The translations under genes were made by a program, and so were the position numbers. The notes under the pieces were generated by a model. The model ran no database searches and was not told the DNA's origin. It worked only from the letters and a program-made list of their open reading frames with translations. A DNA stretch of 32,000 nt from Dubosiella newyorkensis (GTDB lineage: Bacteria; Bacillota_I; Bacilli_A; Erysipelotrichales; Erysipelotrichaceae): assembly GCF_001945605.1 (NCBI RefSeq), contig NZ_MPKA01000044.1:30001-62000 (forward strand), in the 5' to 3' direction. Below are positions 741-32,000 of this stretch, piece by piece; positions within the stretch are counted from its first letter, which is position 1, and every line of letters begins with the position of its first letter.

Positions 741-1744
741 ATGAAGCAAAAAAAATCTACCACTTATAATGTTTGTTTTCATTATCATGAATTTCATCAT
801 TTCCTTATCAGGAATACTGTTTAACGGCATTCTTGACCAACAACTTTCAAATCTTATTGTTTGCTCGTTTTATGGCTGGATTGTTTGGAACCGCATATGG
901 TGTGATTGCCACAACGACTATCGCATCGCTATCCTCTAATAAGAATGTCGGAAGAAACATCGCTTTGTTGATTTCTGGCGCTTCCGCAGCGCTTATGATC
1001 GGTATTCCCCTATGCCGAATCTTGATTGAATACTTTTCATGGCAGATGATCTATCTTGTTTTAGTCATCTTGATGGGAGGAGGTTTGTTGGCTTATACGA
1101 TCTTATTGCCAGAATCAAAAACAAATACCGTGAAAATCGATCTGAACAAAGAATGGAAGCTGCTCACAACTCCAAAAGTATGGAGTATCATTCTTGCTTC
1201 TTTCATCGTCTTTGTTGGATATGGAGCTTTTTATACGTATCTTACACCATATCTCATTGAATTATTCCCACAAATCGAACCATACACAAGTGGAATCCTT
1301 GTATTTGTAGGAGCTTGCGCTTTGATTGGAAATTCAATCAGCGGATATATCTGTGATCGGATCGGCTTTGCGCGCGCTTTATTGTATGGAACAGAGTTGC
1401 AGATTCTTGTTGGCTTTCTAATCTTCATAACCCAAAACAACATGGTGGTCAATATTTTATACGTATTTTTATGGATGATCACAGGATGGTTTATCGGTCT
1501 TCAGCTCAATACAGGAATTAATGTTGTAAGCCAAAAACGCTCCAACTTCATCGTTTCCTTATCTGGATCAATCATTCAGTTTTCGCAAGCCGTTGGCTCC
1601 TCGATTTCAGCAATCGTGATCAATCAATTCGGCATGTCAATGATCATCTTCATTTCCATGATCACTTCTCTTCTATGCGTGATCTTTTGTCTTTTACAAA
1701 CCATTCAAAAACAAGCAGCAATAATAACATCCGAAAATATCTAA
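741..1744 (+). pseudogene. MFS transporter, apparently decayed (frameshift in an A8 tract plus an internal deletion); the intact part is the 303-aa ORF 833..1744
   Basis: ATG 741 has an SD (AAAGGAA) and encodes MKQKK before running into an early stop. The next frame, from 754, reads NLPLIMFVFIIMNFIISLSGILFNGILDQ, a typical MFS TM1. The long ORF in a third frame starts at LLFARFMAGLFG (TM4-like) and contains the second-half motif GYICDRIGFARA. TM2-TM3 and the first-half motif A (G-x-x-x-D-R-x-G-R-K/R) are missing. Confidence 0.5.
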
Positions 1745-1750
1745 AACAAA

Positions 1751-1779
1751 GAGGAAAGATCCAATCCAGATCCTTCCTC
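1751..1779 (+). terminator. Hairpin after the MFS ORF (weak terminator)
   Basis: GAGGAAAGATC (1751..1761) pairs with GATCCTTCCTC (1769..1779) with one mismatch and a 7-nt loop. The following T tract (TTAATTG) is poor. Confidence 0.35.
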
Positions 1780-1791
1780 TTAATTGTATAA

Positions 1792-1876
1792 AAAAACTAC
1801 TACACATACGGGAGCTTACTTAGGGCTGCTTCATTCCTGACCTGACCCGATTCATAAGATCGTATTGTAGTAGCTT
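1792..1876 (-). ncRNA. ffs: Signal recognition particle RNA, small (4.5S-like) type
   Basis: The minus strand reads CTACTACAATACGATCTTATGAATCGGGTCAGGTCAGGAATGAAGCAGCCCTAAGTAAGCTCCCGTATGTGTAGTAGTTTTTTT. It contains the conserved SRP domain IV core GGUCAGGUC-A-GGAA-U-GAAGCAGCC, including the GGAA tetraloop (compare E. coli 4.5S GGUCAGGUCCGGAAGGAAGCAGCC). The ends pair (CTACTACA..TACG with CGTA..TGTAGTAG), and a T7 run follows. Confidence 0.8.
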
Positions 1877-1880
1877 AAAT

Positions 1881-1909
1881 ATAATAGCAAAATCGCTCTA
1901 AAAAGTCAA
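1881..1909 (-). promoter_or_regulatory. Sigma-A type promoter for ffs
   Basis: On the minus strand a -35 TTGACT (1904..1909) is followed by a 17-nt spacer and a -10 TATTAT (1881..1886). The predicted start lies about 7 nt downstream, at the 5' end of the SRP RNA terminal helix. Confidence 0.6.
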
Positions 1910-1916
1910 ACGAGAA

Positions 1917-3206
1917 CTAGCGAACCAGTTTTAGCTCCTCTGTACCTCCCATATAAGGACGAAGCACTTCCGGGATCTTCACCGTACCATCCTCCTGCAA
2001 ATTGTTTTCTAAGAAGGCGATCAACATACGAGGTGGAGCGACACAGGTGTTGTTTAACGTATGAGCAAAATATTTATTGCCCTTATCATCTTTAACGCGG
2101 ATCTTCAATCGACGAGCTTGGGCATCCGTTAAATTCGAACAGCTTCCCACTTCAAAGTATTTTTGTTGGCGAGGAGACCAAGCCTCCACATCGACCGACT
2201 TACATTTCAAATCTGCCAGATCACCAGAACAGCATTCTAAAGTGCGGACAGGAATATCCATCGAACGGAAAAACTCCACCGTATTCATATACATCTTTTT
2301 AAACCAATCCATTGATTCTTCTGGTTTACATACAACGATCATTTCTTGTTTTTCAAATTGATGGATCCGATAGACTCCACGCTCTTCAATGCCATGCGCT
2401 CCCTTTTCCTTTCTAAAACAAGGAGAATAGGAAGTATAGGTATAAGGAAGAGCTTTTTCATCTAAGATCGTATCAATAAATTTACCGATCATCGAGTGTT
2501 CGCTCGTTCCGATCAAATAGAGATCTTCGCCCTCGATCTTATACATCATTCCTTCCATTTCCGCAAAGGACATGACACCCGTCACGACATTCGAACGAAT
2601 CATATAAGGAGGAATGACATACGTGAATCCTTTATTGATCATAAAATCTCTTGCGTACGATAAGATCGAAGAATGCAAGCGCGCAATATCACCCATTAAA
2701 TAATAGAAGCCGTTGCCAGCCACTTTTCTTGCCGCATCCAAATCGATCCCATTAAACCGCTCCATGATTTCTGTATGGTAAGGAATCTCAAAATCAGGAA
2801 CGACAGGTTCTCCAAAACGTTCCAATTCCACATTCTCTGAATCATCTTTTCCAATCGGCACTGTTACATCGATCATATTCGGGATCTGCATCATTTTTTC
2901 TAAAACCGATTGACGAAGCGCGTCTTCTCTTTTAGAAAGCGTCTCAAGATCTTCAGCGATCTTAGCCACTTGAGATTTGACTTCAGCCGCTTCTTCTTTT
3001 TTTCCTTGTGACATGAGCTTGCCGATCTCTTTCGAAATCGACTTGCGCTGATTCCGTAAAGAATCCGCCTGCTGCTGTGTCGCGCGCAGTTCTTGATCTT
3101 CTTCGATCACTTCGTCAACTAAATGAAGCTTATGATCCTGGAATTTTTTACGAATGTTCTCTTTCACAAGATCTGGGTTTTCTCGTACAAATTTAATATC
3201 TAGCAT
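1917..3206 (-). CDS. serS: Seryl-tRNA synthetase
   Basis: The 429-aa protein starts MLDIKFVRENPDLVKENIRKKF, the canonical SerRS N-terminus, followed by a coiled-coil arm and a class II core. An AGGAGG SD lies 4 nt upstream of ATG 3206. The ORF-track extension to 3350 runs through the T-box leader and is not coding. Confidence 0.95.
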   Translation of the reverse strand: MLDIKFVRENPDLVKENIRKKFQDHKLHLVDEVIEEDQELRATQQQADSLRNQRKSISKEIGKLMSQGKKEEAAEVKSQVAKIAEDLETLSKREDALRQSVLEKMMQIPNMIDVTVPIGKDDSENVELERFGEPVVPDFEIPYHTEIMERFNGIDLDAARKVAGNGFYYLMGDIARLHSSILSYARDFMINKGFTYVIPPYMIRSNVVTGVMSFAEMEGMMYKIEGEDLYLIGTSEHSMIGKFIDTILDEKALPYTYTSYSPCFRKEKGAHGIEERGVYRIHQFEKQEMIVVCKPEESMDWFKKMYMNTVEFFRSMDIPVRTLECCSGDLADLKCKSVDVEAWSPRQQKYFEVGSCSNLTDAQARRLKIRVKDDKGNKYFAHTLNNTCVAPPRMLIAFLENNLQEDGTVKIPEVLRPYMGGTEELKLVR

Positions 3207-3577: not shown

Positions 3578-6163
3578 TTACGAATTTGCGATCTCTTCCT
3601 CTTCGACATTCATCTGTCCATCTGGATCGGATTCTACAGCGAACTTTTCTTCGATTCCTTGATCATCCACCACATCGATTTCCTCGATCTCTTCTTCATC
3701 GTGATTGACCAATGTGATCTTATTCACCTTCGCTCCTTCGTCTAAATTGATGAGCTTGATTCCTTGTGTATTTCGTCCATACACACCAATATCAGCAAGA
3801 TGGATCCGGATCATGATTCCTGTGCTCGAGACGATCAACGCATCCTCATCCCCATGGACCGACAACAAAGAAACAAGATCACCCGTTTTTTCCGTGATCC
3901 GAAGCGCGCGTACACCTTTTTTACCTCGCGCCGTTTTTCTGAAATCCGCAAACGAAGAACGCTTGCCATATCCATTTTCCGAAACGCAAAGAACCGTATC
4001 TCCTTCGTGGGACAGCGCGACACCAACAACTTGACCACCATCGGTATTGAATCCAAGAACACCAGCCGCCGTTCTGCCACTCATACGAATTTGCGATTCA
4101 TCAAAACGCACCGCTTTTCCATTGTTGCCCGCGATAATGATCTCATCCGAGCCTGTTGTCGCTTTGACATATTTCAATTCATCATCATCTTTGAGCGTGA
4201 TCGCGATCTTGCCATTCCGATTGATCGTATCGAACTCCTTGACACTTGTTCGTTTTACGATCCCATTTTTGGTTACGAACAACAAGCTTTCAAATCCGTC
4301 TTTATCTTCTGGGACCGCAAGGAGCGTCTGAACTTTTTCATCCGGTTGCAGCTCGACGATATTCACGATCGGTAGTCCTTTCGCTGTCCTGGAAGCATTC
4401 GGGATGTTATAGCCTTTGATTCGATAGACACGCCCTAAATTCGTAAACAAAAGAAGCGGATTATGCGTGTTCATGCTCAACAGCGTATCGACTTGATCTT
4501 CCTCGTTGAGTGTCACCGACTTGATTCCTTTGCCCCCACGATTTTGAGCATGATAGGTGTCGACTGGTTGCCTTTTGATATAACCCGATTCTGTCAACGT
4601 GATAATGATATCTTCACGAGGAATCAGATCTTCATCTTCCATATCCACATACGATTCCGATATCTCCGTACGACGAGCATCACCATACCTTCGATCCATC
4701 TCTTCGAGATCCTCTTTGATGATCTGCAAGACACGATCGTGATTTGCTAAAATATCCTCGAGATCCGCGATCGTTTCTAGAAGCGTCTGGTATTCATTCT
4801 CGATCTTTTCGCGTTCCAAACCAGAAAGGCGCCGAAGTTGCATCGCTAAGATCGCCCGAGCCTGGATCTGCGTAAAACCAAAGGCTTCACACAGATCGGC
4901 ATTCAAACCATTCTCGTCTTTATGCGAACTGCGAATCATATGAATGACTTCATCCAAATGATCGAGCGCGATCCGCAATCCTTCTAAAATATGCGCTCTC
5001 TCTTTCGCTTTCTTTAAATCATATTTTGTTTTCCGAACGATCACATCCACTTGATGATCGATATAATCGACAATGATCTCCTTTAAAGAAAGCTGCTTTG
5101 GCCGGCCTCTTTCCAAAGCGAGCATATTGATCCCAAAAGAAGACTGCAAAGGCGTCAATCTGAATAGCTGATTCAAAATCACATCCTCTTGAGCGTCCTT
5201 TTTAAGCTCCATTACGATCCGCACCCCTTCACGATTGCTTTCGTCGTTCAAATACGTTATGCCTTGGATCGCTTTATCTTTGATCAATGTCGCCATTTTG
5301 GCAAGCAAATTCGCTTTATTCACAGAATAAGGAATCTCATAAAAGATGATCCTTTTTCTTCCTTGCGATAATTCCTCTACACGATATTTCGAACGGATCA
5401 TGATCGAACCACGACCCGTTTCATACGCTTGACGGATCCCTTTTCTTCCTAAGATGATCCCGCCCGTTGGAAAATCCGGACCTTTGATATGTTCCATCAA
5501 TTCCGGAACCGTGATATCTGGATCCTCCATTACCGCGTCGATCGCCTTGACTGTCTCGCTTAAATTATGCGGAGGAATGTTCGTCGCCATCCCGACGGCG
5601 ATCCCCATCGCTCCATTCAACAATAAATTCGGGATCCGAGAAGGAAGGACATCCGGCTCTTCTCCATCTGAATCATAGGTCGGCGAAAAGTCGACCGTTT
5701 CCTTATTGATATCGGCAACCATTTCCATCGAGATCTTCGACATGCGCGCCTCGGTATATCGCATGGCCGCGGCCCCATCTCCATCCAAGGAACCAAAGTT
5801 TCCATGCCCGTCCACGAGCGGATAACGATAGGAAAAATCTTGCGCCATTCGAACCATCGCGTCATAGACAGCCGTATCTCCATGCGGATGATATTTACCA
5901 ATGACATCGCCGACGATACGCGCGCTTTTTTTATGCGCTGTATTGGCTGTCATATTCAATGTGTTCATCGCATAAAGAATACGACGATGAACAGGCTTGA
6001 GGCCATCGCGAACATCGGGAAGAGCCCGCTGCACGATGACAGACATCGAATAATCAAGAAATGATTCTTTCATTTCTTTTGAGATTTCGACATCCTCGAT
6101 CACATCGTGTCCGCGTTCTCCTTGATTTTCTAATTCTTCTGTATTCTTTTCTGGCATGTTCAT
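3578..6163 (-). CDS. gyrA: DNA gyrase subunit A
   Basis: The 861-aa protein has the GyrA signature [20 protein letters not shown] and the active-site region [10 protein letters not shown]. Beta-pinwheel repeats fill the C-terminal domain, and the C-terminal tail is acidic. A GGAG SD lies upstream of ATG 6163. Confidence 0.97.
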
Positions 6164-6169
6164 TCACTC

Positions 6170-8134
6170 CTATAGATCCAAATTCGCATACGTCGCATTT
6201 TCTTGAATAAACTCTCTACGTGGATCGACATCTTCTCCCATCAGCATATCGAACACCGCATCGGCTTCCATAGCATCCTCGATCGTGACCCGCTTCAAGA
6301 TCCGATTGGCCGGATCCATCGTCGTTTCCCATAGCTGCTCGGCATCCATTTCACCGAGTCCTTTATAACGCTGCACTTTGTATCCTTCTTTAAATTCATC
6401 ACGAAGCTGATCCATCTCTTGTTCTTTATACGCATAAGCCACCTTCTTCCCCTTCTGGACTTTATAAAGAGGAGGCTGGGCCAAATACACATATCCGCCC
6501 TCGACGACTGGTTTCATGAACCGATATAAGAACGTCAACATCAATGTACTGATATGCGAACCGTCGACATCGGCATCCGTCATTATAATGATCTTATGAT
6601 AACGAAGCTTAGAAAGATCGACATCATCTTGGATCCCGCAACCAAAAGCTGTGATCATGCTTCGTATTTCCGCATTCTCGAAGATCCGATTCGTTCTCGC
6701 TTTTTCAACATTCAAGATCTTTCCTCGAAGCGGCAAGATCGCTTGGGTCTTCGCGTCTCTTCCTTGCTTGGCAGAACCACCCGCCGAGTTCCCCTCGACA
6801 ATATAGATCTCGCATTCGCTAGCATCTTTGCTGGAACAATCTGTCAATTTTCCTGGCAAAGAAGTGATCCCATCCAAAGCGGACTTTCTTCGCGTCAGCT
6901 CACGCGCCTTTTTGGCGGCGATACGGGCTTTAGAAGCGACCATCGCCTTGTCGACGATCGCCTTAGCCACGCTTGGATTTTCCAAAAAGAAACGATGCAT
7001 TTTATCGCCTACGATATTAGAAACGATCTTGCGGACTTCCGAGTTTCCTAATTTTGTTTTTGTTTGCCCTTCATATTGAGGGTCTGGATGCTTGATCGAA
7101 ATGATCGCGACCAAACCTTCTTTAACATCCTCTTGGGAAAGACTCTCGTCTTTTTTCAACATATTGTTGTCTTTAGCGTATTTATTGATGATACGTGTCA
7201 AAGCCAAACGGAAGCCTTCTTCATGGAAACCGCCTTCATGCGTATTGATATTGTTGCAGAACGAATAAATATTCGCCTGGTATCCATCGTTATACTGCAA
7301 AGCGACTTCCGCAAAGATCCCATCCTGCAACCCATCCACATAGATCACAGGCTCTGAAATAAGCTGCTTGCCTTTATTCAAATATTCGACATATTCAATG
7401 ATCCCGCCTTTATAATGGTATTCATTGACGCGAGGAGTCTCGCCGCGCTCATCCCTTAAAGTCAGACGGATATCCCGATTCAAGAAAGCTAGCTGACGAA
7501 GTCTTGTATTCAAAATCTCATAATCATAAGTCGTTGTTTCTTTAAAGATCTGCGGATCGGCTTTAAAGCGGACAAGCGATCCGGTTTCATTCGTTTCGCC
7601 AATGACCTTTAATGGCGCCACGGTATGACCGCCATTTTCAAACCGGATCATATAGATTTTTCCATCTTGAAAGATCTTGACTTCCATCCATTCGCTCAAA
7701 GCGTTCACAACGCTCGCTCCTACACCATGCAATCCGCCGGAGACTTTATAAGCACCCCCACCAAATTTACCACCCGCATGAAGGACGGTCATGATCGTCT
7801 CGACCGCACTCAGTCCTGTCTTTTCGTGGATGCCAACAGGCATACCGCGTCCATTGTCTCGCACACTGATCACATTGTCTTTTTCGATCGTCACATCGAT
7901 CTGGTTGGCGAAGCCCGCTAGAGCTTCATCGATTCCATTGTCAACGATCTCCCAAACAAGATGATGAAGTCCACGAGAAGAAGTCGAGCCAATATACATA
8001 CCTGGCCGAAGCCTTACCGCTTCGAGTCCTTCTAATACTTGAATGTCATCAGCTGTATAGGAATGGTCCACAAAAGTGGCTTGGTTTTCCATTTCTTCAA
8101 ATTTCAGCAATTCATCGTTATTCGTTTCGCTCAT
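6170..8134 (-). CDS. gyrB: DNA gyrase subunit B
   Basis: The 654-aa protein has GHKL ATPase motifs ([32 protein letters not shown]) and Toprim motifs ([26 protein letters not shown]). A strong SD (AAAGGAGGAAG) precedes ATG 8134 and lies inside the last codons of recF, giving a 17-nt overlap. Confidence 0.97.
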
Positions 8135-9224: not shown

Positions 9225-9424
9225 TCGACTTCGATCCTAATTCCATCGGCTTCGACAACATCCCCTGCATAAATCTTTTTTCCACGTCGATCTTCTTTTT
9301 CTCCATTGAGAAAAACAGGACAGTTCGCTAAAAAATATTTCACTTCACCGCCACTTGAAACGACATCACAGGCTTTTAAAAGTTGCCCCAAAGCGATGTA
9401 ATCATTCGTCAATTTAAATTTCAT
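9221..9424 (-). CDS. yaaA: S4-domain RNA-binding protein, YaaA family
   Basis: The 67-aa protein reads MKFKLTNDYIALGQLLKACDVVSSGGEVKYFL...NGEKEDRRGKKIYAGDVV. Its position between dnaN and recF matches B. subtilis yaaA. An AAAGGAG SD precedes ATG 9424, and the upstream ATG at 9439 has none. Confidence 0.8.
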   Translation of the reverse strand: MKFKLTNDYIALGQLLKACDVVSSGGEVKYFLANCPVFLNGEKEDRRGKKIYAGDVVEADGIRIEVE

Positions 9425-9447
9425 ACAGTCTCCTTTCAATGTAATAC

Positions 9448-9456
9448 ATTATAGCA
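9448..9456 (-). promoter_or_regulatory. Extended -10 element (TGcTATAAT) of a candidate yaaA-recF promoter
   Basis: The minus strand reads GTGCTATAAT about 25 nt upstream of the yaaA start. The -35 is poor, and a second TGgTAAAAT element lies just upstream. Confidence 0.45.
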
Positions 9457-9494
9457 CAAAATCAAACATTTTACCATAATCCCTATTTGAATAC

Positions 9495-9527
9495 AAGAAA
9501 AAAGGAAGCACATTACGTGGCTTCCTT
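9495..9527 (-). terminator. Rho-independent terminator after dnaN
   Basis: AAGGAAGC (9502..9509) pairs with GCTTCCTT (9520..9527), with a T run following on the minus strand. The hairpin overlaps the dnaN stop codon by 2 nt. Confidence 0.7.
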
Positions 9528-10647
9528 AATCAATGCTCCGTACCGGAACAACGATCATCAATGTCGAATCATCTTCTGGATCGCTGATCTTGATCGGCTT
9601 CAAAACTCCTGTAAAAGAGAGCTCGACTCTAGAAGAACCAAGTGCCTTCAGAGCATCGAGCATATACGATCCATTGCATGTCAAAGTCAGATCTTCGCCA
9701 CCATAGATCGAGCTCAACAATTCTTCTTTCGAATCGCCGATCTCGCTAGAGCGCGTCTTGATCTCTACGATCTTGGGCGTGCACTCTAATTTGATCAAAT
9801 GCACTTTGTCCGTCAAGATAAAATTCGTTCGATCGATAGCGTTCGAAAGTTCTCTAGCATCGATCTGCAGTGTAGAAATAAAGTGTTGCGGAATAATTCG
9901 TTCTACATCCGGAAACGTTCCATCCAGCAAGCGCGTTTGAAAGGTCGTCCCATCAAAAATAAACTGCGCCTTTTTTTGATCCACAAAGATCTGAATGTCT
10001 TCTTCCTCTTGATTGAGCGATTTTACGATCTCGTTGAGCGAACGATTGGAAATCGTGATATTGAATGTATTTTCTTGGGGCAAAGTGATCCTTTTGCGCG
10101 CAAGACGATATGTGTCTGTCGCTGAACAATAAAGGTTTTCTCCTTGCATATTAAAATTGATGCCATTCAAAACAGGACGGCTATCAGAATCCGCGCATGC
10201 AAATCCAGTTTGACGCACGATTTCTTTCAATTGTTTTTTTGAAAGGATGAATTCATTTTGAGGTTGATAAAAATCGATCGATGGATATTCGCTTCCTTCG
10301 ATCCCATTCAAATGGAACGTTCCATGATCGCCTTCGATACGGATCAACGTATCGTCAAACAATTCAAAAGAAACGATCTTGCATTCTAGCTTTCGAATGA
10401 TTTCTAATAGATATTTCGATTCGATGATGATCGATCCTGTAGATTCGATTTTTAATTGATTTTCTTCATTGGGTTCAATGATCGTTTTAATCGAGATCGT
10501 CGAATCGCTTCCCATCAAAATCAAATGATCCGCTTCTACTTGAATACAGATCCCAGATAAAGCGGGCAGCGGAGAATAGGGTGAGATCGCCCGAGCGACA
10601 ATGCTAAGTTGGTCATAAAAGTATTTTCGATCTATGCTGAAATTCAT
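9526..10647 (-). CDS. dnaN: DNA polymerase III beta sliding clamp
   Basis: The 373-aa protein starts MNFSIDRKYFYDQLSIVARAISP, a typical DnaN N-terminus. An AAGGAG SD precedes ATG 10647. The ORF-track extension to 10791 crosses the dnaA-dnaN intergenic origin segment. Confidence 0.95.
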   Translation of the reverse strand: MNFSIDRKYFYDQLSIVARAISPYSPLPALSGICIQVEADHLILMGSDSTISIKTIIEPNEENQLKIESTGSIIIESKYLLEIIRKLECKIVSFELFDDTLIRIEGDHGTFHLNGIEGSEYPSIDFYQPQNEFILSKKQLKEIVRQTGFACADSDSRPVLNGINFNMQGENLYCSATDTYRLARKRITLPQENTFNITISNRSLNEIVKSLNQEEEDIQIFVDQKKAQFIFDGTTFQTRLLDGTFPDVERIIPQHFISTLQIDARELSNAIDRTNFILTDKVHLIKLECTPKIVEIKTRSSEIGDSKEELLSSIYGGEDLTLTCNGSYMLDALKALGSSRVELSFTGVLKPIKISDPEDDSTLMIVVPVRSID

Positions 10648-10790
10648 GTAGACTCCTTTAATATATTTATTTTGTATATAGTAACAACAATAAGGGTGGG
10701 GATATTGGGGAAAACTCTTGAAAACCGAATATCTATGCGATTTTTTTACGATTTTAGCTGGGTATGGATTGGGGAAGCCTGGGGAAATCA
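10648..10790. other. oriC, dnaA-dnaN intergenic half (box cluster plus AT-rich candidate unwinding element)
   Basis: Four box-like 9-mers are present: TGGGGATAT 10697..10705, TGGGGAAAA 10706..10714, TGGGGAAGC 10770..10778 and TGGGGAAAT 10780..10788. The tandem pair abuts GGG and a 3-nt periodic tract (AACAACAATAAG, 10683..10694). An AT-rich stretch follows at about 10658..10683, next to the dnaN start. Confidence 0.7.
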
Positions 10791-12134
10791 CAAAAGCTTC
10801 TCTTTGATCTTATGGACGGCGATCTCGAAGGCTTGATCTTTTTGCATTAGATCTTTCGCCCGGTTATAGGAAGACTGGATCGTCTTATGATCGCGTTTTC
10901 CAAGCTTCTTGCCAATCGTCATATAAGGAAGGTGTAAAAGCTCTCTAGAAAGATAGACACAAATGTGTCGAGCGTTCATGATCGCTTTGAGTCTCGATTT
11001 TCCTTCCAGATCTGAAATGGATAAGCCATAAAATTGCGAGACGGAACGTTTGATCGTCTTCATCGTCAATTCGTTTTTTTGCTCGACGATCGGCTCTTTG
11101 CCTAAATGTTCAGTCGCGAATTTTAGATCGATCACGTCGGGATTGAATAAAGTCGACTGAAAGATCAGACGATTGAGCTTTCCTTCCAGATCGCGGACAT
11201 CCGAAGAATAGGACATCGCCAAATAATCGAGAACTTCATCGGTCACAAGATCTTCTCGTCCATCCAATTTCTTTTTCAAGATCGCTTTACTCGTTTCAAA
11301 GCCTGGTTTCGAGATATTGATCGCTAGGCCAGAAGTAAAGCGCGAAATAAGGCGGGATTGCAGATTGCTCAATTCTTTAGGATGGATATCCGAGGTAATG
11401 ATGATCTGCGAGCCTTTTTCGATCAACTTGTTGTAGACCGTGAAAAAGACCTCCTGGGAAGAGTTGTGCTGCAAATTTTGAATATCGTCGATCAAGAAAT
11501 AATCACAGTCGAGAAGCTGCTCTTTGACTTTATCGACTGTATTTCCATGAATATTCTTTGTCTTCATCGCTTCGATAAGGATCGAAACAAAGTCGCCGCT
11601 ATACATATAGATGACTTTCGCTTCCGGGCGTTCGGCATGAAGATAATTGCCGACCGCATGGAGAAGATGGGTCTTCCCTAATCCAGAATTTCCAAAAAGC
11701 ATCAATGGATTGAACATTGGATGGCTTCCTTGATTGCAGGAGGCAAAACAGGCGGCATACGCTTCTTTGTTGCTGCTGCCTTCGATAAAGTTTTCAAAGG
11801 TATAATTCGGATTGAATTTATTTTCCAGAAGTGTGTTGGTCCTTTGTTCGACGACGACTTCTGGCATCATTTGTTCCATTTCTTTTTGTTCGATCAAGAT
11901 CAATGAAACTGGGTTGCCCCATTCCTCGCTCAAAGTCGCTTCAAATAAGGCCAGCTGCCTTTCCATGATCGCTTTTGTGATCGAGGATCGATACGCGACA
12001 TAGGCGGAATCATTTTCTATCTTGAACAAGGTCGTTTTTTGGATCCATACTTGAAAATCTTGTTCATCGAAATATTGAGCTTCGTGGATCTTCTTTAAAA
12101 CGCTGTCCCAAAGCATTTCTAATGTTGTGGCCAT
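10788..12134 (-). CDS. dnaA: Chromosomal replication initiator protein DnaA
   Basis: The 448-aa protein has Walker A GNSGLGKTHLLHA, Walker B FLIDDIQ, sensor/arginine-finger regions IITSD and RLISRFTSGLAINI, and a C-terminal helix-turn-helix domain. An AAAGGAG SD lies 8 nt upstream of ATG 12134. Confidence 0.97.
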   Translation of the reverse strand: MATTLEMLWDSVLKKIHEAQYFDEQDFQVWIQKTTLFKIENDSAYVAYRSSITKAIMERQLALFEATLSEEWGNPVSLILIEQKEMEQMMPEVVVEQRTNTLLENKFNPNYTFENFIEGSSNKEAYAACFASCNQGSHPMFNPLMLFGNSGLGKTHLLHAVGNYLHAERPEAKVIYMYSGDFVSILIEAMKTKNIHGNTVDKVKEQLLDCDYFLIDDIQNLQHNSSQEVFFTVYNKLIEKGSQIIITSDIHPKELSNLQSRLISRFTSGLAINISKPGFETSKAILKKKLDGREDLVTDEVLDYLAMSYSSDVRDLEGKLNRLIFQSTLFNPDVIDLKFATEHLGKEPIVEQKNELTMKTIKRSVSQFYGLSISDLEGKSRLKAIMNARHICVYLSRELLHLPYMTIGKKLGKRDHKTIQSSYNRAKDLMQKDQAFEIAVHKIKEKLL

Positions 12135-12580
12135 CCTTCTGCTCCTTTCGCTCGTATTGCTAGGTTTTCATTATACACAAAACGAAAAGGGGATAAAAGA
12201 GTTTTTCCCCAAAGGAATGTGTTTTCCCCATATCTGGATTAGGGAGAGTCTTTTCCCCTTGGGGAAAATGGGGAAAAAGAAGGAAAATAATTGGGGAAAA
12301 CTCAAACATATCCCCAATTATTTTTAGAAAGATTTTCTTTTAGGTAAGGAATAATTGATGATTTCCCCACTTATCCCCAAAGGGGTGGATAGGGGAAAAG
12401 TTTTTGTGGTGAAAAAAGGGGAATTTTATTCAGTTTTCCCCCATTTTGTTGAAATGACCAAAATCAAGCATGATATAATTCCCAAAAGAATGGGGAAAAC
12501 TTTCGTCATTTATGCTTTTCTTTTTCCCCTATATTAATATATAGACGGAACTTGGGGAAAAATTTATTAGGAACACTTCA
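12135..12580. other. oriC, dnaA-upstream half (dense array of about 15 non-canonical DnaA-box-like 9-mers)
   Basis: Perfect TTTTCCCCA copies lie at 12203..12211 and 12222..12230. Perfect TGGGGAAAA copies lie at 12260..12268, 12269..12277, 12292..12300, 12491..12499 and 12553..12561. One-mismatch variants lie at 12188, 12251, 12308, 12361, 12371, 12391, 12434 and 12522. The region has no plausible coding sequence and sits between divergent dnaA and rpmH. Confidence 0.8.
12170..12196 (-). promoter_or_regulatory. Candidate dnaA promoter overlapped by a box (autoregulation geometry)
   Basis: The minus-strand -10 TATAAT lies at 12170..12175. The -35 region, 17 nt upstream, is TTTATC and overlaps the box TTATCCCCT (12188..12196). 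Confidence 0.45.
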
Positions 12581-12609
12581 TTGACGATATGTATCGGATT
12601 TGCTATAAT
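12581..12609 (+). promoter_or_regulatory. Sigma-A promoter of rpmH
   Basis: TTGACG (12581..12586) is followed by a 17-nt spacer and TATAAT (12604..12609), about 55 nt upstream of the rpmH ATG. Confidence 0.75.
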
Positions 12610-30198: not shown

Positions 30199-30213
30199 TC
30201 TGAGCTAATTTTT
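30183..30213. terminator. Bidirectional terminator shared by convergent genes
   Basis: AGCTCAG (30189..30195) pairs with CTGAGCT (30200..30206) across a 4-nt loop, with A7 on the left and AATTTTT on the right. The stop codons of both convergent genes lie inside the hairpin. Confidence 0.6.
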
Positions 30214-30816
30214 AAATGTGACTTCGATATCGTATTGGTCTTTGATGCCATCCGCGATCTGAAGAAGCTTCGTGATCGAATTGATCGTGTTCTCTTCAGC
30301 GACTTGATAGATTTGTTTTTCTTTGAGTTCTTCATCGACGAGCTTTTTTTGCTGGATGGCGAACTCTTTATAGTCGTTGATGCTGATTTGATTAAAGACA
30401 TTTTTAGATTCGTTGTAGACTTCTATGCTTTTTTCATCGATCGTATTCGTAAGCACTTCAACAGGTGGTAAAGCGATCTTGATTTTGTTTTGTGTGACTT
30501 GAATATCCGCTTGATCGAGATCGACGCCAAGATTGACTTCTCCTTCATAAGTCAAAATAAAATACTTGTTCGTGAGAGGAATCGACCAATTATTGATTTC
30601 CAATGAATTTTCATAACGGCCAACTTTGGCGTAATGATATTTCGTGGTGATCAAATCCGAAGCGGATCTTAGTTGTTCTAAAACCGTCGTTTGGCTTACT
30701 TGTGGTTCGCTTTGTTTTATATTCCAATTCGCGACCCCAAAAAAGAGAAAAACGCCTACGAGGATCCCGGCTGCCAAGACAAATACATACGATTTCCAAT
30801 TCTTTAATTTTTTCAT
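30205..30816 (-). CDS. Membrane-anchored hypothetical protein (DUF4230-like)
   Basis: The 203-aa protein has one N-terminal TM segment (SYVFVLAAGILVGVFLFFGV) followed by a soluble domain (LEQLRSASDLITTKYHYAKVG...). Its resemblance to the DUF4230 family is recalled from memory, not searched. It has no clear SD. Confidence 0.55.
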   Translation of the reverse strand: MKKLKNWKSYVFVLAAGILVGVFLFFGVANWNIKQSEPQVSQTTVLEQLRSASDLITTKYHYAKVGRYENSLEINNWSIPLTNKYFILTYEGEVNLGVDLDQADIQVTQNKIKIALPPVEVLTNTIDEKSIEVYNESKNVFNQISINDYKEFAIQQKKLVDEELKEKQIYQVAEENTINSITKLLQIADGIKDQYDIEVTFKN

Positions 30817-30850: not shown

Positions 30851-30879
30851 AAATCATATCCCCAAATATGTGTTATAAT
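30851..30879 (+). promoter_or_regulatory. Candidate rsmG-soj promoter with an extended -10
   Basis: TGTTATAAT (30871..30879) matches the extended -10 form TGnTATAAT and lies about 20 nt upstream of the rsmG ATG. A box-like ATATCCCCA (30856..30864) sits in the spacer/-35 area. Confidence 0.55.
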
Positions 30880-30898: not shown

Positions 30899-31603
30899 AT
30901 GACACAAGAACAATTTATACAAGCACTCTCAAGCCGCGGGATCTCGCTGTCTGAAAAGCAGATCACGCAGTTTCAAACATATATGCGTCTTCTTCAAGAA
31001 TGGAATGAAAAGATGAATTTGACTGCGATCGTCAAGGACGAAGAAGTTTGGGAAAAACATTTTTATGATTCGATCTTGCCTTTTATTGGCTTGGATCTTT
31101 CGAGTTTTTGCGATGTGGGCAGCGGAGCGGGTTTTCCAGGAATTCCGGTCAAGATCGTCTATCCTGATTGCGAAATGACGCTGATCGAACCACTTCAGAA
31201 GCGATGCCGCTTTTTAGAGGAAGTCGTTTCTCAATTGAAGCTGGAAAATATTTCGGTAATGAACGTGCGGGCGGAAGAGTATGCCAAAGAACATCGGGCT
31301 CTATTTTCGATCGTCTCGGCTCGAGCGGTCGCCAAGCTTTCGATTTTATTAGAGTTATGCATTCCTTTATTGAAGGTCGATGGGATCTTTGTCGCTTTAA
31401 AAGGAAAAAATGGAGATCAAGAGCTGAAGCAGGCTAAAAAAGCGCTCTCGCTCTTGCATGTCAAGCTGATCAAGGAAGAAAAGACGACGATCGAGGAAGA
31501 TGCGACTCGGATCAATTTTTATTTTCAAAAAGTACAGGCCACGCCAATCAAATATCCTAGAGCGTATGGGCAGATCAAAAAGAAGCCACTGGAGGAACAA
31601 TAA
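30899..31603 (+). CDS. rsmG: 16S rRNA (guanine527-N7)-methyltransferase
   Basis: The 234-aa protein contains LQEWNEKMNLTAI, the SAM-binding motif DVGSGAGFPGIPVKI and SARAVA. It has a GGAGG SD and sits in the conserved position upstream of soj. Confidence 0.93.
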   Translation: MTQEQFIQALSSRGISLSEKQITQFQTYMRLLQEWNEKMNLTAIVKDEEVWEKHFYDSILPFIGLDLSSFCDVGSGAGFPGIPVKIVYPDCEMTLIEPLQKRCRFLEEVVSQLKLENISVMNVRAEEYAKEHRALFSIVSARAVAKLSILLELCIPLLKVDGIFVALKGKNGDQELKQAKKALSLLHVKLIKEEKTTIEEDATRINFYFQKVQATPIKYPRAYGQIKKKPLEEQ

Positions 31604-32000
31604 ATGGGGAAGATCATAGCGATATCGAATCAAAAAGGGGGCGTGGGCAAGACGACGACCGCGATCAATGTAGCGACTGGACTCGCTTATGCGAATCGGA
31701 AAGTCCTGCTCGTCGACTTTGATATGCAAGGAAACGCTTCGCAAGGATTATCGGCTCTAAAAGGTGAAGGTCAGCCAACTGTGTATTCGGTCTTGATGGA
31801 AAAATTTCCGATCGAAAAGGCGCTCATCCATATCGAGGAGAGTGGTGTCGATATTTTGCCAGCCAACATTTCTTTAGCTGGCGCCGATTTGATGATGGAT
31901 AAGATTGGTCATGGAAAAGAGCGGCTTCTTAAAGAGGCTTTGGATCCTTTGCGGGATCGATATGATTATATTTTGATCGACTGCCCTCCTTCTTTAGGCT
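31604..32000 (+). CDS. soj: ParA/Soj chromosome partitioning ATPase (5' part; gene runs off the right edge)
   Basis: This ORF is absent from the ORF track because it has no stop within the window. The translation starts MGKIIAISNQKGGVGKTTTAINVATGLAYANRKVLLVDFDMQGNAS, with the deviant Walker A KGGVGKTT. A GGAGGA SD lies upstream, and the ATG follows the rsmG TAA immediately. Confidence 0.9.
   Translation, partial: MGKIIAISNQKGGVGKTTTAINVATGLAYANRKVLLVDFDMQGNASQGLSALKGEGQPTVYSVLMEKFPIEKALIHIEESGVDILPANISLAGADLMMDKIGHGKERLLKEALDPLRDRYDYILIDCPPSLG

Follow-up and report, generated by a model that had tools for sequence, protein, structure and literature searches.

A DnaA-box variant with C at position 7 in the probable replication origins of a clade of Erysipelotrichaceae

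In the 32-kb stretch of DNA analyzed here (the window), the two intergenic regions that flank dnaA carry clusters of a non-canonical 9-mer, TTTTCCCCA, with C at position 7. These repeats probably serve as DnaA boxes in a bipartite origin of the Bacillota type, and their C7 consensus is a clade trait that most likely reflects co-evolution between the sites and the DnaA initiator. The search for DnaA boxes usually starts from TTATCCACA, a consensus on which both regulon scans and the prediction of origins rely. In a clade of gut bacteria that are common, namely Faecalibaculum, Ileibacterium and their relatives, origins have few or no canonical boxes and would be under-annotated.

Results

The origin locus

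The gene order around the origin is serS-gyrA-gyrB-recF-dnaN-dnaA on one side and rpmH-rnpA-yidC-jag on the other, and the sign of the GC skew flips at about 10-11 kb within the window. On its sequence, we assign the region to an oriC of the Bacillota type from a member of the Erysipelotrichaceae. Box clusters are present at 12188-12561 and 10697-10788, with trios and AT-rich DNA at 10648-10693, as in the layout of a bipartite oriC, and the predicted unwinding region is presumed to lie in the dnaA-dnaN spacer (Table 1). The GC content of both dnaA-flanking intergenic regions is 30-40%. A consensus scan returned no convincing sigma-70 promoter of dnaA. A promoter-like site of rpmH starts just 3' of the last upstream box.

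Table 1 Features of the origin locus, in window coordinates
Feature	Position	Strand	Evidence or sequence
dnaN, beta clamp	9526..10647	-	TIGR00663, E = 3e-82
AT-rich stretch, candidate DNA unwinding element	10648..10678	.	extends into dnaN ribosome-binding site
DnaA-trio-like array, five NAN trios	10679..10693	+	+ strand 5'-TAG TAA CAA CAA TAA-3'
GC cluster (CCC in dnaA sense) between box pair and trios	10694..10696	-	sequence
Tandem box pair of presumed unwinding module	10697..10714	-	TTTTCCCCA 10706-10714 then ATATCCCCA 10697-10705, dnaA sense
Two boxes right after dnaA stop	10770..10788	-	ATTTCCCCA 10780-10788, GCTTCCCCA 10770-10778
dnaA, 448 aa	10788..12134	-	TIGR00362, 381 bits vs cutoff 344
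Upstream putative DnaA-box cluster, dnaA-rpmH intergenic	12188..12561	both	15 TTWTCCCCA-type boxes, 7 perfect TTTTCCCCA
rpmH promoter-like site, TTGACG-17-TATAAT + extended TG, 11/12 matches	12581..12609	+	consensus match only
rpmH, ribosomal protein L34	12664..12798	+	TIGR01030, E = 2e-23

A 9-mer with C at position 7 is clustered on both sides of dnaA

Perfect copies of TTTTCCCCA start at 10706(-), 12203(+), 12222(+), 12260(-), 12269(-), 12292(-), 12491(-) and 12553(-). These eight copies compare with 0.39 expected in 32 kb (shuffle mean; maximum 2), and none of 100 shuffles reached eight. All eight lie within 1.9 kb around dnaA, in its two flanking intergenic regions, and there is no perfect copy elsewhere in the 32-kb window. 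The first-pass annotation had described such an origin-clustered 9-mer and judged its copy number to exceed chance, and both statements are borne out.

Variant sites were defined by allowing W at position 3 plus at most one other mismatch, and were counted without overlap. The upstream cluster contains 15 of them (12188-, 12203+, 12222+, 12251+, 12260-, 12269-, 12292-, 12308+, 12361+, 12371+, 12391-, 12434+, 12491-, 12522+ and 12553-), of which seven are perfect, the same figures as in the annotation. Within this cluster, three boxes abut without spacing at 12251-12277 (TTTTCCCCT, TGGGGAAAA and TGGGGAAAA). The dnaA-dnaN spacer, in which four further copies including one perfect copy had been described, has three sites under this rule (10697-, 10706- and 10780-) and a two-mismatch site, GCTTCCCCA, at 10770-. 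The consensus of the window boxes is TT(T/A)TCCCCA. Each of positions 5-8 is C in 19/19 matrix sites (15 upstream and four in the spacer), so that the invariant C noted earlier at position 7 extends to every site; among looser sites in the window, 2/22 have A at this position.

Canonical boxes had been reported as lacking from both intergenic regions. We found no perfect TTATCCACA anywhere in the window and no perfect TTATCCACA or TTTTCCACA in either dnaA-flanking intergenic region; the sequence CTATCCACC, previously given as the closest approach, is visible on the minus strand at about 12384-12392. One-mismatch matches to TTATCCACA number 11 in the window against 6.9 expected, and they are unclustered.

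DnaA boxes have been defined by at most two mismatches to TTATCCACA (PMC4285127). The window 9-mers fall within this limit, TTTTCCCCA differing at two positions (3 and 7) and TTATCCCCA at one. The 19 sites (10697-12561) are clustered in both orientations beside dnaA at the origin, and comparison of the spacer module places them in positions orthologous to accepted boxes of related genomes. The first-pass annotation had assigned TTTTCCACA to cyanobacteria, an attribution that needs correction in that TTTTCCACA is also the usual box of the window organism's own order. The real departure is therefore a single base: the window differs from the usual TTTTCCACA of Erysipelotrichales solely by A to C at position 7 and is identical at the other eight of nine positions.

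The dnaA-dnaN spacer contains a conserved module

The first of the two boxes that follow the dnaA stop codon, ATTTCCCCA, shares one base with it, and relatives also carry boxes at this slot. Farther along is the presumed unwinding module, comprising the tandem box pair, the GC cluster, the trio-like array and the AT-rich stretch. Read from the box side, the array is 3'-AAT AAC AAC AAT GAT-5' and starts 12 bp past the better box. The lowest-GC 40-nt window of the region is 10640-10679, at 17.5%. The published search rule for a basal unwinding system (BUS) is a box with at most two mismatches, a spacer of 0-16 bp (13 being commonest) and (.A.){3,} (PMC8287927). Here we find a box at 10706-10714, a 12-bp spacer made up of the second box and CCC, five trios and, next to them, AT-rich DNA. 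We judged how the boxes are oriented with respect to the trios from the relatives and the published search rules.

The arrangement box-box-CCC-TTATTGTTGTTA-AT-rich is conserved among relatives. The TTATTGTTGTTA element of the trio array is kept across the clade, and the GC-cluster slot reads CCC, CAC or CGG. The upstream box of the module corresponds to the one needed for strand separation in B. subtilis according to published work. In L004, L006 and L170 this box is TTTTCCACA, and the window and L082-L087 have TTTTCCCCA in its place.

C7 boxes are shared by a group of related genomes

In most other Erysipelotrichales, 9-mer enrichment returns TTTTCCACA or TTATCCACA as the top origin motif. 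A C7 variant private to the window genome was considered and rejected, given that relatives carry C7 boxes too. Judged from the origins compared, the variant is a clade trait, present in the window, Ileibacterium valens, Faecalibaculum, strain OPF54 and several metagenomic lineages. A metagenome scan contributed 12 close loci, mostly Holdemanella. When NTWTCCNNN sites are split by their position-7 base, Ileibacterium valens (L087) has 18 C7 and 0 A7 sites and Faecalibaculum (L168) 15 and 2; the corresponding counts are 13 and 3 in L086, 16 and 4 in L084, 11 and 3 in L081, and 11 and 0 in L097. The origins of L082, L083, L085, L095, L096, L169 and Holdemanella are mixed, with both A7 and C7 boxes. 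Enrichment of 9-mers gave no motif for Holdemanella L002 and L003. The possibility that Holdemanella is without boxes was rejected on reading the sequences, where a short degenerate set was found: TTATCCACA, TTTTCCCAA (twice), TTATCCCGA, TTATCCCAA and TTATCCCCA.

Ten related loci and the window together have 83 C7 sites in their origin flanks; their remaining 94 kb contains 3. In this sequence the motif is not the generic scattered repeat that the first-pass annotation had named among the observations that would defeat its reading. That the repeats are not DnaA sites at all, being instead the sites of another origin-associated regulator or a generic dispersed repeat, is a reading to which we give almost no credence. 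The motif does lie two mismatches away from the E. coli consensus, but the sites agree with the TTTTCCACA of their own order at eight of nine positions and occupy slots orthologous to canonical boxes. Moreover, no second set of boxes that DnaA might use instead is present in these intergenic regions. Outside them, the motif is missing from the window (~30 kb) and is almost missing from the 94 kb of related sequence. The interpretation of the repeats as oriC DnaA boxes, proposed in the annotation, is supported by their origin context, their confinement to the dnaA flanks and the canonical-box slots that they fill in relatives.

The position-7 base covaries with a DNA-reading residue of DnaA

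The identity of the window DnaA is supported by a full-length TIGR00362 match and by the AAA+ domain PF00308 and the C-terminal DNA-binding domain PF08299 on P0001, its identical cluster representative; the match to B. subtilis DnaA (8btg) has E = 4e-71. By an ungapped match to 1j1v (query 357-432 to chain 2-77), its residue numbers are 18 lower than those of E. coli DnaA, whose numbering is used below. Our assignments of residues to bases are second-hand, from two papers: base contacts are listed for residues 399, 423, 432-435 and 438-439 (PMC5043019), and D433 and L438 are described as interacting with position-7 bases, L438 not being conserved among bacteria (PMC8235120). The helix-5 DNA-reading motif of the window DnaA, R414-D415-H416-K417-T418-I419-Q420-S421, is the counterpart of R432-D433-H434-T435-T436-V437-L438-H439 in E. 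coli. Of the canonical set of base-reading residues, R381 (R399), D415 (D433) and H416 (H434) are kept and four are changed (P423 to M405, T435 to K417, L438 to Q420 and H439 to S421).

The 56 loci in which residue 438 is M, I or L have 471 A7 and 22 C7 sites, and the 12 loci in which it is Q, A, T, S or K have 35 A7 and 81 C7 sites. The covariation of residue 438 with position 7 has a Mann–Whitney p = 2e-8, uncorrected for phylogeny; on a neighbour-joining tree that lacks support values, roughly one to three evolutionary events account for it, so that it weighs much less than this p value would indicate. In the DnaA neighbour-joining tree, L005, with L438 and A7 boxes, is nested in the C7 clade.

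Predictions from residue 438 were fixed for five further loci before their DNA was seen; four were correct and one was partially so. For Faecalibaculum C7 was predicted and 15 C and 2 A were seen, for Floccifex A7 was predicted and 14 A and 1 C were seen, and for P0096, which has few sites, A7 was predicted and 2 A and 0 C were seen. For P0119 mixed or C7 boxes were predicted (17 C and 9 A seen). The partial case is Catenisphaera, where C7 was predicted and 9 C and 10 A were seen.

The rule has exceptions. S438 goes with A7 boxes in L010 (12 to 1) and with few, degenerate boxes in Holdemanella, and K438 goes with mixed boxes in L096 and Catenisphaera. The C7 clade is without a single common replacement residue at 438, and other DNA-reading positions vary across the family, A7 lineages included (H439 to S, A or N; P423 variable). 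Residue 438 may not be the sole determinant of the position-7 base.

Two narrower rules were rejected. Gln at 438 (Q420) is not a specific switch, as relatives with T438 (L083 and L085) and A438 (L086 and L087) also use C7, and the hypothesis was therefore widened to loss of the hydrophobic residue at 438. Lys at 435 (K417) is not a requirement, as L001, L081 and L084 have T435 yet C7. Lys at 435 may nevertheless sharpen the preference for C7, since the window and two Lys435 lineages of the initial set are near-pure C7; Faecalibaculum agreed in the prediction test.

Discussion

How the origin may work

We infer from these sequences that DnaA binds the repeats. Domain IV would bind the 15 upstream and four spacer boxes, an ATP-DnaA oligomer would grow from the tandem TTTTCCCCA-ATATCCCCA pair over CCC onto the five NAN trios, and the adjoining AT-rich DNA by dnaN would then open, as in the basal unwinding system of B. 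subtilis. We also infer the direction of the preference, toward C7, and its structural reason. DnaAs of the C7 clade have lost the hydrophobic 438-equivalent, its place being taken by Q, A, T, S or K. At the T435 position, Lys is found in several of these proteins, that of the window included. From either of these two positions, a Lys could read the G that faces C7.

Intergenic DNA of 30-40% GC would drift to A or T if unconstrained, and thus C in 19/19 sites points to selection. The same consideration bears on a relaxed specificity of DnaA, in which the protein, having lost the hydrophobic contact at 438, would no longer distinguish A from C, and some lineages would have drifted to C with no positive preference for it. 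Mixed origins in L082, L083, L085, L095, L096, L169 and Holdemanella and the diversity of replacement residues (Q, T, A, S and K) are consistent with this. However, drift at such GC content should not yield ratios of 17 to 2, 18 to 0, 15 to 2 and 11 to 0 in favor of C, and G or T is nearly missing at position 7. We consider relaxed specificity improbable.

A further counterpoint comes from E. coli, Caulobacter and H. pylori, where C7 is the mark of sites that are weak or depend on ATP-DnaA. By analogy, the C7 sites of the window could be weak, not cognate high-affinity sites. An origin made wholly of weak boxes, in which DnaA keeps an ancestral A7 preference and C7 sites fill cooperatively and need ATP-DnaA, is in our estimate unlikely, though it deserves more weight than any other alternative considered here. 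TCCCCA is the exact core of the Caulobacter W-box, at which binding is very weak but detectable, and C7 is common to the ATP-DnaA boxes of all three species. The boxes are many and often abut (12251-12277; 10697-10714), which would suit cooperative filling, and the few A7 boxes beside C7 boxes in L082, L085 and L169 are possible anchors. Against this, A7 boxes that could serve as anchors are absent or nearly so in the window, Ileibacterium (L087) and L097, and the residue reported to contact position 7 is altered in precisely these lineages. Weak sites should be degenerate, whereas C is fixed in every strong site of the window, and within the unwinding module it is the best-conserved box, the one required in B. 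subtilis in published work, that has been replaced by a C7 box. If the origin is nonetheless of this weak kind, initiation would be tightly tied to the level of ATP-DnaA, without a high-affinity anchor box.

Co-evolution of site and initiator remains our preferred reading. Within it, we see the case as evenly poised for a switch of the cognate high-affinity site of the clade's DnaA from A7 to C7, by way of a lost L438-type contact and sometimes a gained Lys at 435 or 438, with mixed intermediates surviving. Such a switch would provide a simple residue-to-base rule for position 7, and would mean that the base marking weak ATP-dependent boxes in model species is the strong cognate base elsewhere. 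The clade is a natural experiment, as its origins range from A7-only through mixed to C7-only, and the DnaAs that go with them are close relatives that differ at one or two recognition-helix residues, among them the residue reported to contact position 7. The DnaA recognition code at position 7 thereby becomes accessible through few point mutants. The system also bears on whether C7 is intrinsically weak and ATP-dependent, or so only with hydrophobic-438 initiators. The finding reveals no new mechanism of initiation.

Comparison with known systems

The window boxes resemble those of Bacillota and Erysipelotrichales (TTATCCACA or TTTTCCACA) in being asymmetric 9-mers in both orientations, in forming rpmH-dnaA and dnaA-dnaN clusters, and in occupying the same slots of the conserved spacer module. 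They differ in having C at position 7 in all 19 strong sites where those boxes have A. In a published review of nine model species, every high-affinity box has A at the equivalent of position 7 (PMC4285127, Table 1).

The closest known motif is the W-box of Caulobacter crescentus (TCCCCA; KMRTCCCSM), to whose consensus the last six bases of the window box, TCCCCA, are identical. The window boxes have the TCCCCA core and C7 of this class, but they are not auxiliary to a set of stronger A7 boxes within the same origin. The C7 hallmark is also shared with the weak I and tau boxes of E. coli and the ts1 and c-ATP boxes of H. pylori. In those species such ATP-DnaA weak boxes are outnumbered by stronger A7 boxes, and the DnaA that reads them has a hydrophobic residue of the 438 type. 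In the window, by contrast, C7 is the sole class, TTWT is well conserved at positions 1-4, and the position-7-contacting residue is changed. Our literature search found no paper that ties the 9-mer to DnaA or to the family, or the genera of the clade to a DnaA box. The TCCCCA core is already known as the weak Caulobacter W-box.

The presumed unwinding module of the spacer has the tandem pair, 3-bp GC cluster, trios and candidate AT-rich DNA unwinding element of the B. subtilis BUS (DnaA-boxes 6/7). Unlike in that system, its boxes are of the C7 variant and its trios are mostly AAT or AAC instead of GAT. Finally, lineage-specific boxes, paired with changes in DnaA domain IV, have been described in Epsilonproteobacteria (TCATTCACA), Thermotoga (a 12-mer) and Actinobacteria (TTGTCCACA), and the window box is likewise shifted together with variation at residues 435, 438 and 439. 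The change in the window is at position 7 and not at 2, 3 or 5, and, compared with those shifts, it is recent, lies within one family and has mixed-origin intermediates that are still extant.

Organization of the origin locus and box inventory

On the minus strand of the window lie serS, gyrA, gyrB, recF, dnaN and dnaA, and on the plus strand rpmH, rnpA, yidC and jag (NCBIfam models); this divergently transcribed locus is a classical Bacillota origin neighbourhood. The GC skew switches sign at ~10-11 kb, in agreement with the origin placement of the first-pass annotation. Its box counts and coordinates also hold. The 9-mer TTTTCCCCA has 8 perfect copies in the 32-kb window (mean 0.39, maximum 2 in dinucleotide-preserving shuffles), 7 between dnaA and rpmH and one in the dnaA-dnaN intergenic region (hereafter the spacer). 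With position 3 relaxed to A or T and a single additional mismatch tolerated, the scan gave 15 non-overlapping upstream sites and 3 in the spacer, where a two-mismatch site makes the fourth. As the annotation had noted for the intergenic regions, the canonical box is missing: perfect TTATCCACA is absent from the whole 32-kb window, and its one-mismatch matches (11 versus 6.9 expected) are dispersed. In a count matrix of 19 sites, positions 1-4 are T/A, T, T/A, T, positions 5-8 are CCCC in all 19, and position 9 is A in 14 and T in 4.

Three upstream boxes abut with zero spacing, a single TTTTCCCCT facing a tandem pair of TGGGGAAAA on the opposite strand; they are packed more closely than the boxes of E. 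coli arrays, for which gaps of 2-3 bp are described. Beyond the origin, one-mismatch matches occur at about the background rate in the window. An isolated ATATCCCCA in the short gap between two divergent ORFs could mark a DnaA-regulated promoter or be due to chance; two further one-mismatch sites lie within or near the rightward ORF.

Coordinates of features in the window and in related dnaA loci
Feature	Positions	Strand	Remarks
Upstream box cluster (dnaA-rpmH)	12188-12561		15 sites
Perfect TTTTCCCCA, upstream	12203-12561		7 copies
Abutting boxes	12251-12277	both	three boxes
Two-mismatch site, spacer	10770		
Module box, spacer	10706-10714		perfect TTTTCCCCA
Box-to-trio spacer			12 bp, second box plus CCC
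Five trios	10679-10693	+	3'-AAT AAC AAC AAT GAT-5'
Lowest-GC stretch of the region			17.5% GC, directly past the trios
dnaN-recF gap	9225-9525		300 bp
Isolated ATATCCCCA	30856-30864	+	
Divergent ORF	30205-30816	-	
Divergent ORF	30899-31603	+	
One-mismatch site	31048-31056	-	
One-mismatch site	31605-31613	-	
FemAB-family gene, L083	1426-2682		
FemAB-family gene, L085	1353-2585		
FemAB-family gene, L169	1398-2630		
FemAB-family gene, L170	1407-2633		
MatE transporter gene, Ileibacterium (L087)	850-2241		
S4-domain protein gene, L081	5815-6018		between dnaN and recF
Holdemanella origin (L002/L003)	5580-5976, 7345-7489		

The nearest matches of the window DnaA are metagenomic proteins, and the nearest named organisms are Erysipelotrichaceae (Ileibacterium valens, Faecalicoccus, Floccifex, Catenisphaera and Faecalibaculum); the best genome match is Erysipelotrichaceae bacterium OPF54 (75% identity). 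The rpmH-dnaA junction is not fixed in this family, because in relatives FemAB-family or MatE transporter genes are inserted between rpmH/rnpA and dnaA; in these loci the upstream box cluster still adjoins dnaA. Between dnaN and recF, relatives also have a gene for a 67-aa S4-domain protein (PF13275). At the corresponding site in the window there is a gap, in which an ORF of this size would be too short for the 80-aa listing threshold applied.

Identification of the repeats as DnaA boxes

For comparison we used 80 loci from genomes, another 80 from metagenomes, and 12 contigs that carry the genes of particular DnaA homologues. By de novo 9-mer enrichment around dnaA, TTTTCCACA or TTATCCACA ranks first in most Erysipelotrichales loci, and within the first locus set TTTTCCCCA does so only in the window and OPF54. 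Boxes with C at position 7 (C7, as opposed to the canonical A7) are present in all closer relatives fetched individually, whose origins are pure C7 or C7/A7 mixed. These encode the DnaA homologues P0002 (82% identity), P0004 (76%), P0005 (75%), P0006 (70%), P0007 (69%), P0020 (66%), P0026 from Ileibacterium valens (64%) and P0100 from Faecalibaculum.

The spacers of the window and its relatives align on one conserved module. In the dnaA sense it reads GAGTTTTCCCCA-ATATCCCCA-CCC-TTA TTG TTG TTA CTA, followed by AT-rich DNA, in the window, CTTTTCCACA-GTTTTCCACA-CCC-TTA TTA TTG TTA in locus L004 and TTTTTCCACA-TTTTCCACA-TCC-TTA TTG TTG TTA in L170. Therefore, the C7 box of the window occupies the slot of the canonical box in relatives. 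The window module also reads as a candidate basal unwinding system under published search rules (a box with at most 2 mismatches, a spacer of 0-16 bp, most commonly 13, and at least 3 NAN DnaA-trios; PMC8287927). Across eleven loci of the C7 clade, NTWTCCCCA has 83 sites in origin flanks versus 3 in the 94 kb outside them, which speaks against the generic scattered repeat that the annotation had named as the alternative. Given the orthologous slots, the module and the confinement to origin flanks, its claim that the repeats are DnaA boxes is, at the sequence level, secure.

Covariation of DnaA residue 438 with box position 7

Window DnaA residues 357-432 align without gaps to residues 2-77 of the E. 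coli domain IV chain in 1j1v. The offset is 18 residues, so the window RDHKTIQS corresponds to E. coli R432-D433-H434-T435-T436-V437-L438-H439 (E. coli numbering is used below). For the comparison with domain IV of E. coli and B. subtilis, the numbering is fixed independently by the 1j1v and 8btg alignments. The basic-loop arginine R399 (R381 in the window), D433 and H434 are conserved; P423 is replaced by M, T435 by K, L438 by Q and H439 by S. Thr435 of E. coli DnaA reportedly confers sequence-specific binding (Sutton and Kaguni, 1997). T435K is mentioned as a component of a multi-mutant allele used for lowering initiation. Base contacts are assigned, second-hand in PMC5043019, to residues 399, 423, 432-435 and 438-439. 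PMC8235120, also second-hand, has D433 and L438 contacting the position-7 bases on both strands and describes L438 as not conserved among bacteria.

Residue 439 is S, A, N or T in nearly all Erysipelotrichales DnaAs examined, in A7 and C7 users alike. In the closer relatives of the window position 423 is variable (M, T, Q, V, S, N) and an aromatic residue replaces L422. These residues set the reading head apart from that of E. coli or B. subtilis.

Position 7 was tabulated against helix-5 sequence, first for all NTWTCCNNN from 700 bp upstream to 200 bp downstream of dnaA and then, more strictly, for NTWTCC[A/C]CA in loci with at least 5 sites. Where residue 438 is M, I or L (56 loci) there are 471 A7 and 22 C7 sites, and where it is Q, A, T, S or K (12 loci) 35 A7 and 81 C7. 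In loci with at least 5 sites, the C7 fraction is at most 0.33 in the hydrophobic class and has a median of 0.9 in the other. The nominal p = 2e-8 for this association overstates the evidence, because independent evolutionary events are few. On a neighbour-joining tree of DnaA only, drawn without support values, the C7 users all fall within one clade, whose sister has M438 with A7; nested inside the clade is L005, with L438 and A7 boxes (9 to 2). Gln at 438 failed as the switch, as T438 and A438 lineages use C7 too, and Lys at 435 failed as a requirement, Thr being found there in the C7 users OPF54, P0002 and P0005.

Predictions from protein sequence alone were recorded before DNA retrieval for five further homologues.

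Position-7 predictions and observations
DnaA	435/438	Predicted	Observed
Faecalibaculum (P0100)	K/A	C7	15 C, 2 A
Floccifex (P0064)	T/L	A7	14 A, 1 C
P0096	T/I	A7	2 A, 0 C (few sites)
P0119	T/S	mixed or C7	17 C, 9 A
Catenisphaera (P0067)	S/K	C7	9 C, 10 A (partial miss)

Exceptions to a residue-438 rule are L010 (S438, A7) and L096 (K438, mixed). The surviving rule suggested by these sequences is that a hydrophobic 438 goes with A7 only, and that a small or polar 438 permits, and usually accompanies, C7. Lys435 combined with a non-hydrophobic 438 is found in three genomes (the window, Ileibacterium and Faecalibaculum), which have the purest C7 origins; it is chemically plausible that this Lys could read the guanine opposite C7.

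Divergent boxes in other lineages

Holdemanella (H. hominis and Holdemanella sp.) has a short upstream region with ~8 degenerate boxes, including TTATCCACA, TTTTCCCAA (twice), TTATCCCGA, TTATCCCAA and TTATCCCCA, and its spacer module carries TTTTTACACA / CTTATACAG in place of CC-containing boxes. This origin looks unusually eroded, given a DnaA 69% identical to that of the window. In the P0119 locus (contig CBFFOQ010007010.1) TTATCCCCG and TTATCCCCC predominate in the spacer and upstream, and Faecalibaculum has TTTTCCCC(A/C/G). Position 9 has drifted too in these two lineages, where the last box base may also be changing. An Oscillospiraceae MAG (L067) with a distant DnaA has an aberrant helix 5 (IHHTSVMGAF versus RDHxT) and dnaA flanks enriched for CTGTGGGTT/AACCCACAG (4 perfect copies) and TTTCCCACA; it may be another divergent box/initiator pairing.

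Probable selection for C at position 7 and the strength of the boxes

Position 7 is C in 19/19 strong window sites, and in three further lineages the C:A counts are 18:0, 15:2 and 11:0. The intergenic regions have 30-40% GC, in which an unconstrained site would drift A/T-rich; the pattern argues for selection for C. C7 may be the high-affinity state for these proteins; alternatively, the origins might consist entirely of weak, ATP-DnaA-dependent sites. In model species C7 marks weak ATP-DnaA sites: E. coli, Caulobacter and H. pylori are described as having it in common in their ATP-DnaA boxes (PMC8235120), and the Caulobacter W-box, which reads TCCCCA, is called 'very weak but detectable' (PMC4285127). 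Another group puts the ATP-preference determinant at box positions 1-4. We consider a wholly weak origin unlikely here, because the window is without any A7 anchor box, the C7 box stands where the unwinding module has its best-conserved box, and the contacting residue is altered in the same lineages.

Comparison with known DnaA boxes

As a DnaA-box cluster within a standard bipartite origin, the element belongs to a kind already known. Literature searches combining the 9-mer with DnaA, or the relevant genera with 'DnaA box', yielded no pertinent paper. The C7 boxes imply no new mechanism; they are useful and testable for replication-initiation research and for origin annotation. In a 2015 review of high-affinity boxes from nine species (Table 1 of PMC4285127), position 7 is A in all eight 9-mers and A also stands at the corresponding place of the Thermotoga 12-mer, whereas the window boxes have C. 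What appears to be new is the C7 box as the only type that an origin contains, its spread over a gut Erysipelotrichaceae clade in which mixed intermediates persist, and its covariation with a residue reported to contact the position-7 base.
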